Part shown: positions 1 to 26,487 of the stretch, piece after piece | Position numbering within the stretch: position 1 is the first letter of the stretch | Layout of the letters: each line of letters begins with the position of its first letter | Assembly (NCBI GenBank): GCA_026770705.1 | Contig: JANJGN010000008.1 | Span: 161,882,001-161,946,000 of the forward strand | Direction: 5' to 3' | Origin: Isurus oxyrinchus | Taxonomy: Eukaryota | DNA length: 64,000 nt | Notes under the pieces: model-generated | Told to the model about the DNA's origin: nothing | The model's input: the letters and a program-made list of their open reading frames with translations, nothing else | Database searches by the model: none | Position numbers and translations under genes: made by a program

Positions 1-3000
1 ATTGTGAGTTTGGGCCTTCTTTTAATGATATGCTTAGAGATGGTTTGGTGCGCAGTATAAACAAAAACGTGATTTGGAAGAGATTACTGGTTGAATGAAA
101 TCTAGATTTTCAGAAGGCGTTGGAAATCATTCTTGCAATGGAAGGCACAGTACAAGACTCAGAAGCCATTCGGAGAGTGCAAACTGGCGCCGTCCTCCAT
201 GTTGGGCGTGGTGCTTCAACAAAAAAAAGTATGAAAGAGCAGAGCTTTGTTCTGAAGCAGGAAGCAGTCACCGCTAGTGAACAAATTAAAAAGGAAATCT
301 TTGCAGCAAATAGTGGCAAAATAGTGACAGTGGTGGAAACAGACAGCCCTGTATTGGAAAACAGTTTAAAAGAATTGAATGTTTCTTCTGCATCATAATG
401 GACACCTCATGAGACATTGCAAAGATAGAATCAGGCAGACTTTCAGACAAAAGCAAAGACCCAATGAGATTAACAGTGTTGAAAAGCCTGAAGTAATAGA
501 TGCTGATATCTATTTGTCATATAATTTAATGATAGGAAGAACAGAGCCAATGTAACCATGAGAGTGAATGAGATGTTTCTCAGAATGGAAGTGGGTACCA
601 GGGAAGCCACTACGGTGATTAGTGAGCATACGGTTAAATACCTGAATCATGGAGAATGTAAGTTGAATTTAGAAGGGACTAATGACAAATTAAGAACTTA
701 CACAGGAGAAGACACACAAGTCAAGGGTATAAAGTCACAGAACACGATGAAGGTCAAACAGTGAGGTTGCCCTTGATGGTAGTAGCAGGTGAGGCACCTA
801 GTCTTCTCTGATGAAACTGGCTGAAAGAAATTAAGTTGGAATGGACAGAGTAGCCCTGAGAACTAATGGGTTATCACAGCTACTACAAAAATATGCCTCA
901 GTTTTCAAGGAGGAACTTGGAAAAATTGAAGGGCTGCAAGCAAGATTCATGTAGATCCATAGGCAACCCCAAGATTCATGAAGGCAAGAACAGTACCTCA
1001 TCCAAAGCGGGATAAAGTAAATGCCGAACTGGACAGATTAGAAAAACTGGGAGTGATACAGCCAGTGCAATTTTCAGAGTGGACAGCACCAATTGTATCT
1101 GTTCTCAAACCTAACCAAAGCGTTTGGGGACTATAAAATAATAGTTAATAAAGTGGCAAAATTGGATAGACCACCCATACTAAAATTGAAGATTTATATG
1201 CAAAATTGGCAGGTGGAAAGGCAGTTAGATATGAGTTAAGCCTACGAGCAATTGGAATTAGAGAAGGTATCCCAAAAGTTTGTCACCATAAATACGCATA
1301 AGAGATTGTACAAATACACCCATTTACCATTTGGCGTATCGTCTGCTTGCACAATATTCCAAAGAACCATGGAAAGTTTACTACAAGGAATGCCCCATGT
1401 TGTAGTTTATTTGGATGATGTTCTCGTGACTGGACTCACTGAAAAGGAACATTTGATGAACTTAGAAGGAGCTCTGAAACGTTTTGTCACAGGCTGGAGT
1501 GAGATCGAAAAAGGAAAAGTGCACTTTCCAGGCCAAAGAGGGAACTTACCTAGGTCACAGGGTAGGTTCACAAGGCTGAACCCAGTTGAAGAAAAAGTGA
1601 AAGCCATTAAAGAAACCCCCGCACCAAAGAACACATCCAAACTGAAATCATCCTTGGGGATGATCAATTACTATGGACATTTCTTGCCTAATTTGTCGAC
1701 AGAACTGGCTCCCCTTTATTACTTGCTCAAGAAAAACCAGAGATGGTCATGGAAAACACCGCAAGAAGAAGCTTTCACAAAAGTAAAAAAATTGCTACAA
1801 TCTTCTACACTGTTAGTACATTTTGATCCAAAGAAAGAGTTAGTATTAACGTGCGACGCATCACCTTATGGAGTAGGAGCGATGCTTTCCCATCGAATGG
1901 ATGATGGATCAGAATGACCTATAGGATATGTGTCAAGAACACTTAATACTGCAGAGAAAAGGTACTCACAAATTGAAAAAGAAGCCCTGGCAATCATTTT
2001 CAGTGTTTAAAAAGTTTCAATATGTACATGGTTGTCATTTTACTATTATAGCAGACCACAAACCATTATTAGGACTATTCGTTGAAGACAAGGCTCTACC
2101 TCCTATAGCTTCAGCAGTGTATGATTATACATTTCTTCACAGACCTGGAAATCAAACGAGAAGCACTCAGTCATTTACCCTTGCAAGTAAAAGATGAGGA
2201 TGTTCCAATTCCTCAGGAATTCACCTTATTGTTGAACTTCCTGGACCCATCCCCGATATGTACTAAACAAATTAAAGATTGGATGAATGGAGACCCAGTT
2301 TTATCCAAAGTGAAGAATCAAGTTCTTCATGGTTGGTCACAAACACAAGAGTCTGATGAAGTGAACCCGTATTTCCAGAGAAGATACAAGATAACCAGCC
2401 AAGAAGATATCTTATTGTGGGCAGCACGAGTGATTGTTGCTCCAGAAAGGACAAAAGCCATTGTTATCTGAACCTCACAGTGCACATCCCAGAATTTCCA
2501 AAATGAAATGCAATAGCACACAGCTATATGTGGTGGCCGGGAATGGATGGAGAGATAGAAAACTTAGTGATAAGTTGTATGCAGTGTCAACAAGTGCAAA
2601 AATTACCTACAACAGCTCTGTTACAACCCTGAGAGTGGCTAGGAAGGCCATGAGTATGAGTATGCATCGACTATGTGGGACCTTTTATGGGAACAATGTT
2701 TCTCCTTATCATAGACTCTCATTCCAAATGGATGGACATATATGAAGTGAGGTCACCCACATTTTCAGCGACAATAGACAAGCTATGACAAAGCTTCACT
2801 ATAAATGGACAACCTAAAGTGCTAGTATCAGATAATGAAACAGTATTTACAAGTGCTGAGTTTAACCAATTTACAAGACTCAATAGTATTGTTCATGTGA
2901 AAACATCTGCTTACCACCCTTCTTCAAACAAACTCGCCGAGAGAGCAGTTCAGACATTCAAATCTGGTATGAAGAAATTACCTGGAGATTCGATTGCAAC

Positions 3001-15400: not shown

Positions 15401-16860
15401 CAATTGGTACGTTTGAAATGCAGCTCTGAATTCAGGAATAAGACCACTGAGCCTCAAAAGCTTTTTTTATATATGACTAAATTAAACTTTTACTAATTTA
15501 ACAACAAATTAAACACATACACATGTCTACAAATGACTACCATAATAACTTTTAAACAAATCCCCAAATTAATAACTCCCAGGTAAATTTTCACCAAGGC
15601 ATCAATAACCCATTAACTTTAAACAGACACCAGACAAAGAACATTTGACCTTACAAATTCAAACACGGTCTCTTGCAATTTTGTTCCTTTGCACACACAA
15701 TTGTAGGCTTATAGGCTGGTTAGATCTTAAATGCCTCTGACCTTATAAACACAAACTCCTTTCTGTTTATACTTAGCTTTTTCTTTGCATGTAAATTTTT
15801 TATGGTATCCTAGGCTTTTAACGTCACATCTTCTAACAGTAACATTTTCATCCCACTAATTTTATTAGTAACATAAACACATTGCTAGACATCTCCCAGC
15901 TAGGTGAAAGATTCTACTCATTCCTTTGAATGCTTTATTTAAAAATGCAAATTGCCCCCTTGACACCTATGTTTCTAAACTTCCCCATGTTATCTAATTA
16001 CCATTTCAAACCTGTTGCCCTGCATCTGATTTAACACCGTAGTGCCACTCTCGTTTACTAAAAAATGTCAGCAGTGAAACAGGGAGAATGTCCTTCGGTT
16101 TTAATTTCCTTGGGTAGGATGATTGATCTAAAGCCAACTTATTCAAATGCTAGAGACTCTGTTCAAAGCGCATTACTGTATATTGCTTGATGGATCTACC
16201 TAGATGGCTTTTTCCACTTGGGCTTGTGTAATAACTGTGCCAGCTTGAACCGAGTGATTGCACACTTGCCTCTGACTCAATGTGCTGTTCATTGCCCAGG
16301 ATTTAAGTCCATAATGAGGGAGAAATGAATAGATGGATAGACTAATAGGATTAGATGAAGAAGGATGGGTGAAGGTTGTGTGGAGTACAAGCTCCAGCAT
16401 GGACCGGTTGGGCCAAATGCTGTACATTCTATTAATGCATTGAAGCTATTTGCTTCTGCTTCCTGCTTTAATTTCTCCTACTGCAAGATTGATCTTAAAC
16501 AGAAGGGGACACTGCAGGGATAATTCCTGATGCCTGATGCTCCTTTGATGAACTAATCTTTGCTGTGCTGTAATAACCAGTTGCATATTACAAAAAAGAC
16601 TGAAAAATCATTATTTTACATATTGTTAATATGCGAACGATAGTGGTAGAACCATGGATGTTTCCAACACAGAATAATGCCATTGGCTCCAAGATGTCTG
16701 TGCAGCAAATGGAGTGCAACTGAGGAAACTGAGTGCAGACTTGGATTTTGATGATAGGGGGAGTTTAAAGTGTTAATTTTGTTCTTAAATTTTGCTCTCA
16801 AAATCTAAGCTAGCCTGTAATTAGCAGCAATTGGAAAGTTCTGTGTAAGCAGGCTAATTT

Positions 16861-16903
16861 CTTACCTGGCAGGGGAGAGATCTTCATCGCGTTTCTGCCA
16901 GGG
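16861..16903 (+). ncRNA. U1 snRNA-derived 5' fragment (not a complete U1 gene)
   Basis: CTTACCTGGCAGGGGAGA (16861-16878) equals vertebrate U1 nt 4-21 as recalled. It is followed by a diverged match to stem-loop I (catcgcg ~ GATCACG; tttctgccaggg ~ TTTTCCCAGGG). Confidence 0.75.
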
Positions 16904-16911
16904 AAAGAGCA

Positions 16912-18450
16912 ATGGCTCTAACCAGTCAAACTCCTTACCATGGGGTATCTAACACCATCTGAGTCATGGGGAAGGGCAGTGAGCAAGGAACAGGAATGGA
17001 TAGGACCTTCTTCACCAAGAGGATCCTATTCAAGCTGTGTGGTTTCGAGGCTATAGAGATCTACTGCCTACAGGATTTCCCCAGCGCTGGATTTTTTGAT
17101 GTGACCTTCAAGCAAGTGGCAGCTTGTGTCAAACTCCTGAAGGTGTTTGAGCAAAAGAAAGACCTGCCAGAAATGAAGATCCTGACGGCGGAGCCGCTCT
17201 TTGCTCTACCGTTGCAACGAGAACGGGTTGTGACGGTGCATCTGTACAACCCCTACGTCCCTGTCGCTGATGTGCTCACCTTCCTTACCAGGTACTTCGA
17301 TAAGGTTGGGAGCTGCACTGAGGTTAAAGATAATTTGGGGATCTGGACATGTAAATGCCAGGTTAAGGAAACGCTCAAGACCGACGGTAAGGGAGCCATT
17401 TTCCACGCCCCTTCCAGATTTGCTATCGGGGGAAGCCGTGGCTACCTTGTCTACGCTTGGCAACCCAAACTTTGTCGCTCATGCGGCAAGTCTGGTCATG
17501 TGGCGGCCAACTGCAGCTCCGTCCTCTGCAAGAACTGCAAAAAGGAAGGGCACTAGACAAAAGATTGTAAACAGGCTAAGTGCTGCAACCTGTGTGGCGA
17601 GGCAGGTCACCTCTACAAGGCCTGCCCCAAATGTTGCCGTACTTATGCACAGGCAGCCAAAGCCAACGAGGGGGAAGCAGAAGAAATGCCTCGTGTCACT
17701 CCAACCACCAAGGCCCCCAGGGAGAACAACGGGACAAAGGAGGACACAGAGAGAGACAAGGTGGAGGAAAAGATTGGGGCAACAGACGACCAACCAACAG
17801 CACGGCCCCCTGAACCTCCCACTCCTCAGGAGAGCGAATCAACGGAGGAGGAGGAGACAGCTGTGGGAAAGCAGCAGGGGGAGTGGCAGCTGGTGAAGAG
17901 AGCCAAAAGGAAGAAGGGGCTAAAAAGAAACCAAGCCACTTCCCAGACAAGAGTCAAGAGGCGTCTCCTATCCGACACGGATAACAAGAGCAGCAGCTCT
18001 TCAGACGAAGAAGGGCCAGGGCGGCGCCAACAGAAGAAGCGGCAAAACGCTAGGGAGTTGGAGGATGAGACACCTGAGCTCCAGAACGTTGGAGACAATG
18101 AGGAGACCTGCGCACTCCAACATTGCCCACAACCCGAAGAGGCCAGTGCACCACAACCCCAGGAATCTGGGAACAGTGAGGCGCTCAGCGCACCCCAGCG
18201 CCGGGAAGCCGGGAGCAGCAACGCCCCAGAGGGGGAGAGGATTGGAGAAGCTTCTCCAACAGAGGACATTTCAAACCCCGCTCTCTGCACGGACCCCCAG
18301 ATGCCACCCGAGCAGAACAACGCCAATGGGGAGGTTCAGGACGCTTTCCTCAGCCCATCCCAAGTGAAGCAATTTGAGCACACCATGGGCATGAAGGAGC
18401 AGACCAAAGGTCTGGAACTCTCAGAGACAACAGGTTTGGTAAGTGACTAA
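16912..18450 (+). pseudogene. Tx1 ORF1 (three CCHC zinc knuckles, acidic/basic disordered tail; ZCCHC3-like N-terminus)
   Basis: One frame from ATG 16912 with in-frame stops at 16960 (TGA) and 17554 (TAG). Knuckles CRSCGKSGHVAANC, CKNCKKEGH*TKDC, CNLCGEAGHLYKAC. Confidence 0.9.
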
Positions 18451-18460
18451 CTGCTTTAAA

Positions 18461-21400
18461 ATGGGTGTAAAGATTGTATCCATAAATGTGCGTAGCATTA
18501 AATCTACTACGCGATGTGTTGTGACCTTGGACTACCTTGCCAAGGTCAAAGCTGACCTGTTGTTTCTGCAGGAGTGTGCGATACCGCACCTCAGCTCCTA
18601 CAGGCAATGGTCACGATGGTGGTCCCATGGGCCATCGATCTGGTCAGGAGGAAATGACTCTCGTTCCTCCGGCCTGGAGATTCTGCTGCGGGGAGGCAAC
18701 TTCACCGTCTCCCAGGTTAAGGAGGTGGTGGGCGGACGCCTCCGCGTAGCAGACGTAATGTACAAGAATGCTCCACTCCAGTTAATTAACGTCTATGCCC
18801 CGTCACAAGGGGCTGAGCGGCCAGAGGTTTTTCAGCAGCTCCCACTGGCGACCTCCAGGCCGGTCATTCTGGGCGGTGACTTCAACTGCATCATCGATGC
18901 AGCTGGACAATCCGGCAGGGCTGACAGCAGATTGGATGCTACATCCAGATCCCTGATGGAAACAGTAAAGGATGCCAAGCTGCACGACGTCTTCAGCAAC
19001 CCTGTAGATGGAGCGCAGCGTAGATACACCTGGTCGCGGCCTGACGGGTCCGTCTGTTCCAGGATAGATTTCCTGTTTGTGTCCCGTGCATTCACAATTA
19101 GATCCACCGACGTCAAGCCGGTGTTATTCTCTGACCACTGCCTCCTACTGGCTGACTGTCACTTAGAAAAGGACCAGAGGGTTGGCAGGGGGGCATGGAA
19201 GCTAAACGGGAAACTGCTGACCCCAGAGAACATTGAGGAGCTCAAGAGGGATTACAAAGGTTGGAGAACCATGAAACCCCACTTTGAGTCACTGACACAC
19301 TGGTGGGAAGCGATCAAGGGAAACATCAAGAGGTTTTTCGTCCTCAAAGGCACCCAGAAAGTTAGAAAGGAACAGAGGGAAATGTCCCGACTCCAGAAAA
19401 ACATGCAGAATCTGCTCTGGCTGCAGTCGATGGGGGTCGATGTCAAGGAGGAACTCCAAGAGGTGAAGAGCCAGCAAGCCTCGCTCTTTGTTTCGGAGGC
19501 CTCCAAGATCATCTTCCGTTCCAGAGTCCACTCCGTGGAGCAGGACGAGACATGCTCACGTTTCTTCTTCCAAAAGCTACACAGAGAGAGCTCTGTGATT
19601 AGCAGCCTGAAGGAAGAAGATGGCTCAGTAAAGTCATCACAGTCCGACATTTTGAGGATCAGCAAATCCTTCTATGCTGGATTATATGACGTGAAGCCCA
19701 CAGACAACACGGCCTCCCAGTCCTTCCTGTCCTCTATCACGGAGGTCTTAGACAACAGTACATGGGAGAGTCTGGACAAAGCGCTAACTCCTGACGAACT
19801 GACTGAGGCCCTTGAGTCCTTCGAGAAGAGTAAAACTCCCGGAAGCGACGGCTTGCCGGCGGAGTTGTATTCGGCTCTGTGGGACTGGATCGGCCCGGAC
19901 CTGCTAGAAGTGTATGAGAGTATGCTCCTGACCGGCAGTATGTCAGAATCCATGAGGAAAGGCATTATCACCCTCATCTACAAGCACAAGGGGAAAAGGG
20001 AGGAAATTAGAAATTGGCAACCCATTTCACTGTTGAATGTGGACTATAAGATTCTGTCCAAGGTCATCGCCAATCGGGTCAAATCTGCTCTGGAATTGGT
20101 GATTCACCCTGACCAGACCTGTACTGTGCCGGGCAGGAAGATCTCTGCTGCTCAGGGATATGATTGCCTATGTGCAGGACAGGGGTGTGGATACCTGCCT
20201 CATCAGCCTGGATCAGGAGAAGGCCTTTGACAGAATATCGCACACCTACATGGTGGATGTGCTCTCCAAAATGGGGTTTGGGGAGGGAATTCGCAATTGG
20301 ATCCAACTGCTCTACACTAACATCAGTAGTGCAGTCTCAATCAATGGGTGGGAATCAGATAGATTTCCTATTAAATCTGGAGTCAGGCAGGGCTGCCCTC
20401 TCTCGCCTGTTCTTTTCGTGTGTTGCATAGAACCCTTTGCTGAGTCCATCAGGAAGGATCCGGGCATAAGAGGAGTGACGATCCCAGGTAGTGGAGGCAC
20501 TCAGATCAAAGTTTCCCTGTACATGGATGATGTCGCTGTCTTCTGCTCGGATCCGCTGTTGGTGCACAGACTTATCCACATCTGCGACCAGTTTGAACTG
20601 GCCTCGGGAGCCAAGGTAAATCGTGGGAAGAGCGAGGCCATGTTCTTTTGGAAATGGGCTGACTGATCCTTTGTCCCCTTCACTGTCAGGGCTGATGGCC
20701 TGAAGCTGCTGGGGATACGGTTCGGAGGGACCAGGGCACGCGTTAGAAACTGGAAGGAGCGAGTGTCTATGGTGAAAAGGAAACTGGGCATGTGGGAGCG
20801 ACGCTCCCTCTCCATTGCGGGTAAGAACCTGGTCATCAGGTGTGAGGCACTCTCGCTGTTGCTGTACGTGGCGCAGGTTTGGCCCATTCCACACTCCTGT
20901 GTGGTGGCGATCACCCGAGCCATCTTCCGCTTTATCTGGAGGTCGAAAATGGATCGTGTCCGCAGGGACACGATGTACAAGCCTCTAGATAAAGGGGGAA
21001 AAAATGTGCCCGACATCGCCCTCATACTGATGGCCACCTTTGTGTGCGGCTACATCAAGCGGTGCGTAGACCCTCAGTATGCAAACACCAAGTGTCACTA
21101 CATGCTGAGGTTCTACCTGTCCCCGGTGTTGCGAAGGATGGGTCTGGCCACGATGCCGTGGAACGTTCCAAGTAGTTGGACCGTGCCGTACCACCTGTCC
21201 CTCGTGGGAAAATTTATGCAGAGAAACACATTCGACCACAAGTCCATCAGGCAGTGGTCAGCACGTAACGTGTTAAAGGCCCTGAGGGAAAAGGAGAGGG
21301 TGGATCCTGTGGGATGGTTCCCTGAGCAGACTGACAAAGTCATTTGGCAGAATGCCTCATCACCAGAACTTTCCAACAAACACCTAGATGTAGCTTGGCT

Positions 21401-21851
21401 GGTGGTGAGAAAGGCCCTCCCTGTAAGATCCTTCCTACACGCCAGGAGTCTCACCCCCTCTGCACGTTGCCCTCGAGATGGCTGTGGTGGGGAAGAGACC
21501 GTTGTTCACCTCCTTGTAGATTGTGTCTTTGTGAAGAAGGTCTGGAGAGAGATGCAGTGGTTTCTGTCGAGGTTCATCCCGAGCAGTTCTGTGACAGAGG
21601 ACTCTGTGCTCTACGGGCTGTTCCCAGGGACACACACTGAGACAAACATCAACTGCAGTTGGAGGATCATCAACTCGGTGAAAAACGCTCTTTGGTCTGC
21701 CCGAAACTTGTTGGTTTTCCAGTGCAAAGAGTTGTCCCTGACCGGGTGTTGCAGACTGGCACATTCCAAGGTCCAGGACTACGTGCTGAGGGACACAGTT
21801 AAGCTTGGGGCAGCCGCCACAAAGGCGCAATGGGGAAGGGTCGCTGCCTAA
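18461..21851 (+). pseudogene. Tx1 ORF2 (AP endonuclease, reverse transcriptase, C-terminal CCHC)
   Basis: SINVRSI, LQEC, NVYAP, GGDFN, SRIDF, SDH (APE); PGSDG, PISLLNVDYK, DQEKAFD, GVRQGCPLSP, YMDD (RT); CPRDGC..ETVVHLLVDC. Frameshifting deletion near 20145 and TGA at 20664. Confidence 0.93.
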
Positions 21852-22189
21852 GACCTTTCTGCCACAGTGCACCGAGGGACTGGAAACTGTAAAGAGCCCC
21901 TCAGGCTGTACAGATTAAAATGAATGTCTGCCAATGATTGTAATATTCATTGTTTGTACTGATACATCTTGTGATTCATGTTGTAAAAGTTGAACCTGAT
22001 TGTATTTTTGTAATGGTGATTTGAAATGTTTTTGAAGATTTATGAATGAAGTATATTTTTACAAAAAAAAAGCAGGCTAATTTCTTTTTTCCTTGAAGCT
22101 TAGACAGGATAAACTCTCACACTCTGCTGTGAGAGCTGGGTAGTTAAATAACTAACTGGTTGAATCTGGTTCCTCTAGCCCCAGTTCAG

Positions 22190-25100: not shown

Positions 25101-26487
25101 GCTTAATATCTGTTGTGGGGAAGTTGTTACATCACTCGTTATAGCAGTCACAGCTGGACACTTAGAAAAACACAAGGTGATCGGGAAGAGTCAGCATTGC
25201 TTCATGAAAGGGAAATCATGTTTAACCAATTTATTAGAGTTCTTTGAAAGAGTAACATATGCTGTGGATAAAGGGGAGCCTGTGGGCATACTATACTTGG
25301 ATTTCCAGAAGATATTTGATAAGGTACCATATCAAAGCTTATTGCAGAAAATAAAAGCTCAAGGTATAAGGGGTAACATCTTAGCCTGGATTGAGGATTG
25401 GCTGTTTGGTAGAAAACAGAGAATATGCATAAATGGGCCTTTGTCTAATTGGAAGGATGTCACTAGTGGAGTCCCACAGGGATCTGTGCTGGGCCCTCAA
25501 GTTTTTACAATTTACATCAATGACTTAGATGAGGTGAGCGAAGACATGGTAGTTAAATTTGCAGATGACACAAAGAGAGGTAGGAAAGTATGTTATGAAG
25601 AAGACATAAGGAGTTTGCAGATGGATATAGATAAGTTGAGTGAGTGGGCAAAAATCTGGCAGAGGGAGTTTAATGTGGGAAAACATGAAGTTGTTCATTT
25701 TGGCAGGAAGAATTAAAAAGCAGAGTATTACTTAAACTGAGAACAGCTGCAGAATTCCGAGGTGCAGAGGGATCTAGGTGTTCTGGTGTATGAGTCACAA
25801 AAAAGTTAGCCTGAACATACAGCATATAATCAAGAAGGCAAATGGAATGCTATCCTTTATTACAAGAAGAATTCAACATTGAAGTAAGGATGTTATGCTT
25901 CAGTTACACAGGGCATTGGTGAGACCACATCTCGAATACTATGTGCAGTTTTGGTCTCCTTATTAAAGAAGGGTGTAAATGCGTTGGAGGCAGTTCAAAG
26001 GAGGTTTACTAGTTTGATACATGGGATGAGGTGGTTATCTTATGAGGATAGGTTGGACAGGCTGGGCTTGTTTCCATTGTTTTTAGAAGTGAGGGTGACT
26101 TGATTGAAGTATATAAGACCCTGAATGGTCTTGACAAGGTGGCTGTGGAAAGGATGTTTCCTCTTGTGGGTGAGTCCAGAGCTAGGGGGCACGGTTTTAA
26201 AATTAGGGGCGCCCTTATATGACAGAGATGAGGGGAATTTTTGTTCTCTCACAGAGTTGTGTGACTTTGGAACTCTGTGCCTCAGAAGGGAGTGGAAGCG
26301 TGGTTATTGAAAATTTTTAAGGCAGAGGTGGATAGATTTTTGTTAGGCAAGGGAATCAAAGGTTATTGGGGGTAGTTTGGACTGTAGAACTCGAAACACA
26401 AACAGATCAACCATGATCTTTTTGAATGATGGAGCAGGCTCGAGCGGCTGAATGGACTACTTCTGTTCCTATCTCGTATGTTCGTAG
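22190..26487 (+). mobile_element. Near full-length decayed CR1 LINE (ORF1 zipper + SGNH esterase ~22515-23430; ORF2 APE-RT ~23620-26370); 5' limit uncertain
   Basis: ORF1: KCLRLEKLQLRVIELEAELQ, VVVVGDRTVRGID, VHVGANDIG, DGLHLN. ORF2: KALYLNMCSIHNK, PGPDRLHPRVLKE, YLDFQKIFDKV, GVPQGSVLGP, FADD. 3' end ctcgtatgttcgt. Confidence 0.92.

Follow-up and report, generated by a model that had tools for sequence, protein, structure and literature searches.

We looked at a window of 64,000 nucleotides, the whole stretch of DNA analysed here, in which lies a 5.2-kb broken Tx1-type LINE with two ORFs, flanked by a 17-bp target-site duplication (Table 1). The clade name is presumably Tx1, which we take from the build of ORF1 and ORF2 and from the first-pass annotation. 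The features of that clade were found: two ORFs, an ORF2 encoding an apurinic-type endonuclease and a reverse transcriptase, a poly(A) tail and a target-site duplication. For the endonuclease region, the nearest proteins were ORF2s of amphibians, all unnamed (45-48%), and a fragment from the horn shark (72%), matches that are consistent with a shark host and a vertebrate Tx1-type element. The element had been called autonomous; this copy is no longer so, since an in-frame stop at 16960 interrupts ORF1 and the two ORFs are both fragmented. Unbroken versions exist in siblings, with an ORF1 of 512 aa (four siblings) and an ORF2 of 1134 aa (sibling L096), and a copy with the two ORFs intact was not seen among the 78 family members examined. 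Target-site duplications of 10-22 bp were detected with a strict script at 43/81 loci, and siblings have poly(A) tails. A scan of the window for further U1, U2 or element matches returned none besides this one copy. A reverse-transcriptase-like ORF fragment from another LINE is located downstream of the Tx1-type element, at 25204-25716.

Table 1. Features of the Tx1-type copy, numbered from the first nucleotide of the window
Feature	Position	Strand	Remarks
5' target-site duplication, 17 bp	16847..16863	+	identical 17-mer at 22070-22086; its final 3 bases overlap the head (microhomology)
U1-derived head	16861..16903	+	compared with the genome's own U1 genes
ORF1, broken	16912..18450	+	two ZCCHC3-type RNA-binding domains and a CCHC knuckle
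ORF2, three pieces	18461..21851	+	apurinic-type endonuclease, reverse transcriptase, zf-RVT
3' UTR, short poly(A) tail	21852..22069	+	mutated poly(A) signal at 22045-22050
3' target-site duplication	22070..22086	+	flank neither U1 nor U2

The 5' UTR of the window copy is 54 nt long and is made mostly of U1 nt 1 to ~52. The first-pass annotation had described an 18-mer equal to U1 nt 4-21 and an ORF1 ATG at 16912, and had placed the 5' end at ~16861-16864 from the target-site duplication; the 18-mer is indeed present at 16861-16878, the ATG at 16912-16914, and the 17-bp duplication gives the same end. The probability of meeting any one specified 18-mer by chance in the window is 1.9e-6, and an overlapping 18-mer (U1 nt 3-20) had 290 exact matches in the genome vs. 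0 for the reversed control. A divergence after nt 21 had also been reported. This was wrong when the host's own U1 was used for comparison, since the window copy matches it exactly over nt 4-23 and is then diverged to ~nt 52, with a 6-nt deletion. Most siblings and the young copies match as far as nt 25-27, older siblings as far as nt 32; past the 6-nt deletion the match resumes and reaches ~nt 52-58 of the U1 genes of this genome. The window copy lacks U1 nt 1-3 because the last 3 bases of the duplication overlap the head. The idea that the variable first 3 bases were enzyme errors was dropped, as they correspond to this microhomology. The Rfam U1 model, suggested as a check, did not detect the head (0 hits at the gathering score and no U1 hit at E<=10), because the head is too short for the model. 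Finally, the flank is without U1 or U2, in accordance with the claim that this copy landed in non-U1 DNA: it is an off-target offspring copy.

When the 5' ends of full-length siblings were compared, the best 39 all started at the head (39/39, query positions 77-84), with flanks unrelated in 27 of the 30 loci listed, and no headless full-length class was seen among these 39. Heads were fetched from 80 of the first 83 matches listed, three known U1 copies being skipped, and from one chosen locus; out of the 81, 78 belonged to this family, two were U1 copies and one was an older relative. An old, family-wide capture had been proposed: the head is family-wide, while a single old capture does not account for the four head types described below. 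The distal head (U1-derived nt 26-52) carries the shared 6-nt deletion and subfamily-specific substitutions, all absent from 20/20 intact U1 genes, and these subfamily-specific changes mean that it was inherited from source elements. The proximal part is nearly that of host U1, with 5 mismatches in 532 positions over U1 nt 7-25 in 28 dispersed copies. Moreover, 26 of the 46 copies keeping U1 +1 have a G at -1 (background 0.216; p 2.8e-7), a position where intact U1 genes have a C. An extra 5' G on L1 and SVA was read as a reverse-transcribed cap (PMC2912911), and from the extra G seen here we infer that the template RNA was capped and started at U1 +1. A hairpin is predicted in the head, in which U1 nt 8-18 pair with its distal part, over the splice-site-pairing segment (z -2.6); fold z-scores of heads range from -1.9 to -2.6, like that of native U1 nt 1-60 (-2.2). 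Selection on this hairpin was not detected (0 fixed differences in 33 columns vs. 45 in 569 for ORF1, p 0.16), in a comparison where nt 4-20 were already fixed by the way the copies were chosen. A mean pairwise identity of 0.896 was set aside, interrupted copies being among those compared.

The genome contains 19 distinct loci at which a poly(A) is followed by U1 nt 37-40 (reversed control, 0), a count including segmental duplicates (C29, C208, C256; C36) and transductions. Eighteen of these loci were examined and in all 18 a tail of this lineage precedes the U1 sequence, at 89-95% identity to the window copy. The exact tail, present 975 times genome-wide, was borne by 6/16 loci checked, one of the six being a transduction; random insertion would give 1.6e-5 exact tails at U1 junctions, assuming 40 U1 loci and a 4-nt window. 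L087 holds a full-length copy with a U1 head and, behind it, U1 40-164 with the 3' box; the native U1 downstream flank was matched over 650-1200 nt by 7 of the 12 loci tested. Native U1 upstream DNA precedes the element at L364, L365, L366 and L370 (4/9 tested; 86-93% over 520-860 nt), reaching to or near the element, and a promoter search added L373 and L374; at L371 the match is to native U1 DNA further upstream only. Upstream U1 promoter DNA and downstream U1 3' halves, both of which the first-pass annotation had proposed to look for, are present, e.g. at L364 and L087. The order at L364 is U1 promoter, single decayed head, full-length element and U1 40-164, with 840 nt of U1 upstream DNA (91%) from which ~7 nt just before +1 are absent. 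An intact source was looked for with the promoter-proximal 4 nt joined to U1 nt 1-20, a string found at 21 places, none of which is a promoter-linked element: 20 are intact U1 genes and one belongs to an element copy that has no U1 DNA upstream (chance match). Set against the 20 intact genes, the 19 junction loci, among which are duplicates and transductions, make disrupted U1 loci about as numerous as intact ones in this assembly. Insertion on target is often accompanied by deletion or rearrangement of the promoter or 5' half of the snRNA gene (L370, L366, L322:5851-6149, L318).

Four loci (L364, L373, L374 and the pseudogene L375) have kept the U1 promoter, and the functional U1 is gone. In these, 27/100 positions of nt 1-25 differ from intact U1 vs. 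29/490 in U1 41-164 (p 8e-9), which is about 4.5-fold more substitutions right past the start site; by comparison, dispersed heads, which were chosen by similarity, have the 5/532 differences given above. This excess may come from mutagenesis at an active start site or from selection against such loci, and hypermutability of snRNA genes has been described (bioRxiv 10.64898/2026.10.12.758683; PMC12658150). Such an excess would make sources short-lived.

Three dispersed copies carry U1 nt 35/40-164 and a common U1 3' flank, two of them with a poly(A) and an outer duplication. L363/L338 is full-length, 94% identical to the window copy and starts at U1 +1, with upstream DNA that lacks a U1 promoter. 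Its tail gives way to U1 40-164, the 3' box and ~260 nt of U1 flank, then to an AATAAA and a poly(A), and the whole is bounded by a 21-bp outer duplication, which repeats the upstream site. L361/L335 is built likewise, outer duplication included, L377 has U1 40-164 and 195 nt of the same U1 flank, and L376 has the flank alone. These four transduced flanks are 92-95% alike mutually and 84-88% alike to the flank of the nearest intact U1 gene. The source copy therefore sat inside a U1 gene and, judging from these sequences, the transductions derive from one source or from few paralogous ones. They establish where the source resided; that it was driven by the U1 promoter is a separate step of the argument. 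The donor locus was not among 40 scored matches, and U1 3' sequence was present in one of the 81 offspring, L087, which is itself on-target. Altogether, the copies inside U1 genes and the 3' transductions support the earlier suggestion that the source element lies within a U1 gene or behind one.

U2 genes are also entered. Tails of the lineage precede U2 nt 38-40 at L248, at L289 (two in tandem) and in the C14 cluster, and exact poly(A)+U2 junctions number 2 genome-wide. Tails typical of U2-headed subfamilies sit in U1 genes (L345, L346, L350) and a tail typical of U1-headed subfamilies sits in U2 genes (L289), which is the situation that head swapping needs. Exact U2-short heads were not found within the main U2 array (0/49). 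In a tandem U2 array with a unit of ~2.06 kb (G000:C30:185000-538000; L318, L319), insertions occur at the edges, one at -45 of a U2 promoter and two at the Keno site, and none was seen inside the units examined. In a variant U2 tandem array remnant with a spacer of ~390-430 nt (L248:735-1160 and its paralogues L291-L304), an element disrupts each of consecutive units. Duplicated units, each with one U1 and one U2 gene and old element copies between them, are located at G000:C29:175000-240000 and 990000-1135000. The U2-headed copies of this C29 U1/U2 cluster were considered as promoter evidence and rejected, being mostly duplication passengers with unrelated upstream DNA. One C29 set lies behind a spacer common to other U2 remnants; it was not counted because this spacer has no match to the promoters of intact U2 genes.

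Four head types were found on this one lineage, two from U1 and two from U2, all with the same ORF1 start. Relatives with other heads came from searches using an older copy (20 loci) and a U2 5' motif (30 loci). The long U1 head, U1 nt 1-34 with a ~200-nt UTR, was seen in L108 and at 6/20 loci of the older-copy search; the long U2 head, U2 nt 1-54 with ~55 nt, at 4/20 and at 4/30 loci of the U2-motif search; and the U2-short head, U2 nt 1-37 abutting a 10-nt spacer, at 4/20 and 21/30, respectively. The distance from the 5' end to the ORF1 ATG ranges from ~47 to ~200 nt across head types, and the start is always snRNA +1. A tree of the endonuclease region (38 rows, midpoint root, without outgroup, many open branches; L270 used solely as a U2-short copy) and its terminal branch lengths suggest that long-UTR U1 and U2 heads came first, then short U2 and then short U1. 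One short-U2 row groups inside the short-U1 rows. Two dispersed offspring are double-headed, each within its own duplication: L142 has U1 4-55 and L372 has U2 1-59 ahead of a U1 head. The ends of these added heads coincide with those of the spacers at tandem on-target junctions (U1 37-50, 40-56 and 40-57; U2 40-57). L223, found from the U2 motif at 1491, is U2-headed and internally deleted, with a 74-nt head and the last ~1 kb of the element, and is possibly a SINEU-like non-autonomous form.

The explanation that we hold to be probable is that the element is co-transcribed from the host snRNA promoter and that heads are exchanged at on-target insertion. It starts from what is observed: the family-wide head, the fixed sites in U1 and U2 genes, the source in a U1 gene, and the four head types with their exchange. 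Transcription from the snRNA promoter is what we infer from the start at +1 whatever the UTR length, the cap G and the absence of any known internal snRNA promoter. A source in a U1 gene would be transcribed from U1 +1, giving a capped RNA headed by U1 sequence. About 99% of new copies would land elsewhere, keep the head, have no promoter and be dead ends, such as the window copy; dispersed insertion sites have a weak motif only (43 sites). A small share would hit another U1 or U2 gene. There, the U1 end of the cDNA could pair with the upstream half of the target, so that promoter, head and element would be rebuilt as a new source (compare L364). Alternatively, if the junction forms where the top strand is cut (U1 nt ~50-57, U2 nt ~54-59), or if the cDNA is truncated at its 5' end, the 5' part of the target gene would become an added or new head, which would explain the U1/U2 head swaps. 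Tandem spacers end at U1 50-57 and U2 57, where added or fixed heads end, and this suggests that new heads arise from top-strand-cut junctions. Several points speak against this explanation: no intact promoter-linked copy turned up in the search described above, L364 lacks ~7 nt just before +1 and has a decayed head, most offspring carry no U1 3' sequence, exact U2-short heads are missing from the main U2 array, the motif at dispersed sites is weak, and snRNA promoters are normally coupled to 3'-box processing and not to polyadenylation. In four public runs, no contig bridging promoter and head was found among assembled contigs of guessed RNA status, with a common repeat swamping the tables; assembled contigs, again of guessed RNA status, cover ORF1 in organisms A and B. 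With less assurance, we lean towards a wider statement, that this is a promoterless LINE lineage persisting only by cycling through U1 and U2 genes. It would borrow their Pol II promoter, take its head from the last snRNA gene entered (at least two U1/U2 swaps), restore the promoter junction with this head serving as homology arm, and shed ~99% of its copies as dead dispersed repeats. It would then be the first demonstrated case of a retrotransposon that targets U1 genes, and would illustrate a general origin of snRNA-headed LINEs and of SINEU.

Among the alternatives, the one that survives best, though we find it improbable, is that the head was acquired by template switching to U1 RNA and then inherited by an element with its own internal Pol II promoter. 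Any copy could then be a source, and the U1 and U2 insertions would be a leftover Keno-type preference. This would fit with the mostly dispersed copies and with the failure to find an intact promoter-linked copy. Template switching has a precedent in SINEU-2, whose 5' U1 additions are ascribed to it by Kojima 2015 (PMC4494074), and tailless U1/U2 fragments (L090, L243, L244) indicate that the enzyme is able to copy snRNAs. However, four sibling flanks trace to one U1-gene source although on-target copies make up ~1% of tails, the distance from head to ATG varies about four-fold across subfamilies while the start stays fixed at snRNA +1, and added heads end at on-target top-strand cuts. It is very improbable that the reverse transcriptase jumps onto U1 snRNA in every round and so acquires the U1 5' end afresh, in which case a headless source would suffice: nt 1-25 equal to host U1 in nearly all copies and the two double-headed offspring agree with it, but nt 26-52 share a deletion and subfamily substitutions that none of the 20 intact U1 genes has, and a headless full-length class is lacking among the best 39 siblings. 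A one-off chimera or a chance resemblance at the window locus, with which the silence of the Rfam U1 model would agree, can be dismissed given that the best 39 siblings start at the head within unrelated flanks and that 78/81 fetched heads belong to the family.

The proposed co-transcription from the snRNA promoter can be set beside known systems. A U1 head on an autonomous shark LINE had been noted as not known to be described, but U1 heads are already reported on the crocodilian Tx1-2_Crp, Tx1-2B_Crp and Tx1-4_AMi, and a U2 head on Tx1-11_Crp (Kojima 2015, PMC4494074). In the main text of that paper, SINEU are also U1/U2-headed, the snRNA heads are explained by template switching, the crocodilian snRNA-headed group clusters with Keno in the tree, and transcription is left open, snRNA promoters being outside the transcript and no internal one being known. 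Crocodilian Tx1-Mar elements resemble ours in their U1/U2-derived 5' ends and in recurrent head addition and exchange (PMC4494074). They differ in favouring Mariner-N4_AMi or LTR elements, and U1-gene insertion is absent from the main text, whereas the window lineage enters U1 and U2 genes, has younger copies (93-96% to the window copy) and has a visible U1-gene source. Flanks of our dispersed copies, compared among themselves, look unrelated, with a weak motif. SINEU are short (<500 bp) and non-coding, unlike the window element with its 5.2 kb and two ORFs. Keno, as presented in PMC4494074 and PMC4640811, likewise has an apurinic-type endonuclease and inserts before U2 nt 38-40; it is described there as U2-specific, whereas the window lineage is mostly dispersed, also uses U1 nt 39/40 and exports an snRNA head off-target. 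Strict U2 specificity does not apply here, with 975 exact tails, 2 poly(A)+U2 junctions and 19 poly(A)+U1 junctions. The 3' U2 flank is common to Keno and Utopia, and begins at nt 39 in Phytophthora Utopia (PMC4640811); Utopia uses the same U2 site as the window lineage but with a restriction-like endonuclease, and Dada-U1 also targets U1 genes but is a DNA transposon (PMC4640811). R2 of 28S rDNA depends on transcription of the target gene (co-transcription cited in PMC4494074), as the window lineage probably does, and in both the upstream target sequence carried by the RNA may help to place the 5' junction. It is unlike in its restriction-like endonuclease, Pol I host gene and self-cleaving ribozyme, whereas the RNA of the window lineage appears to be capped at snRNA +1 and its insertions are mostly off-target.

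The text of PMC4640811 (2015) names only Keno, Utopia, Dada-U1 and Dada-U6 as snRNA-targeting elements, and that of PMC8869645 adds no further U1-targeting retrotransposon. None was found in the literature searched, which comprised few subscription papers, with Repbase and Dfam outside its scope. U1 targeting, the dual use of U1 and U2 and the genomic evidence for promoter borrowing therefore appear new, the head alone being known, as judged against the main text of PMC4494074, whose Fig. 1B and supplements may show relevant heads or flanks. U1 genes join the list of retrotransposon targets. Promoter borrowing, if true, would answer how snRNA-headed retrotransposons get transcribed, and the life cycle would be one of source and sink, a mostly dispersed LINE depending on rare targeted copies. 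The genome keeps intermediates, namely on-target U1 and U2 copies, U1-carrying offspring, double-headed offspring and four successive heads, and the transcription question therefore becomes testable. Dispersed U1 retrocopies are present as well (L047, L049, L050, L035); three of them include the 3' box region, being precursor copies, and L047 has a clear outer duplication.
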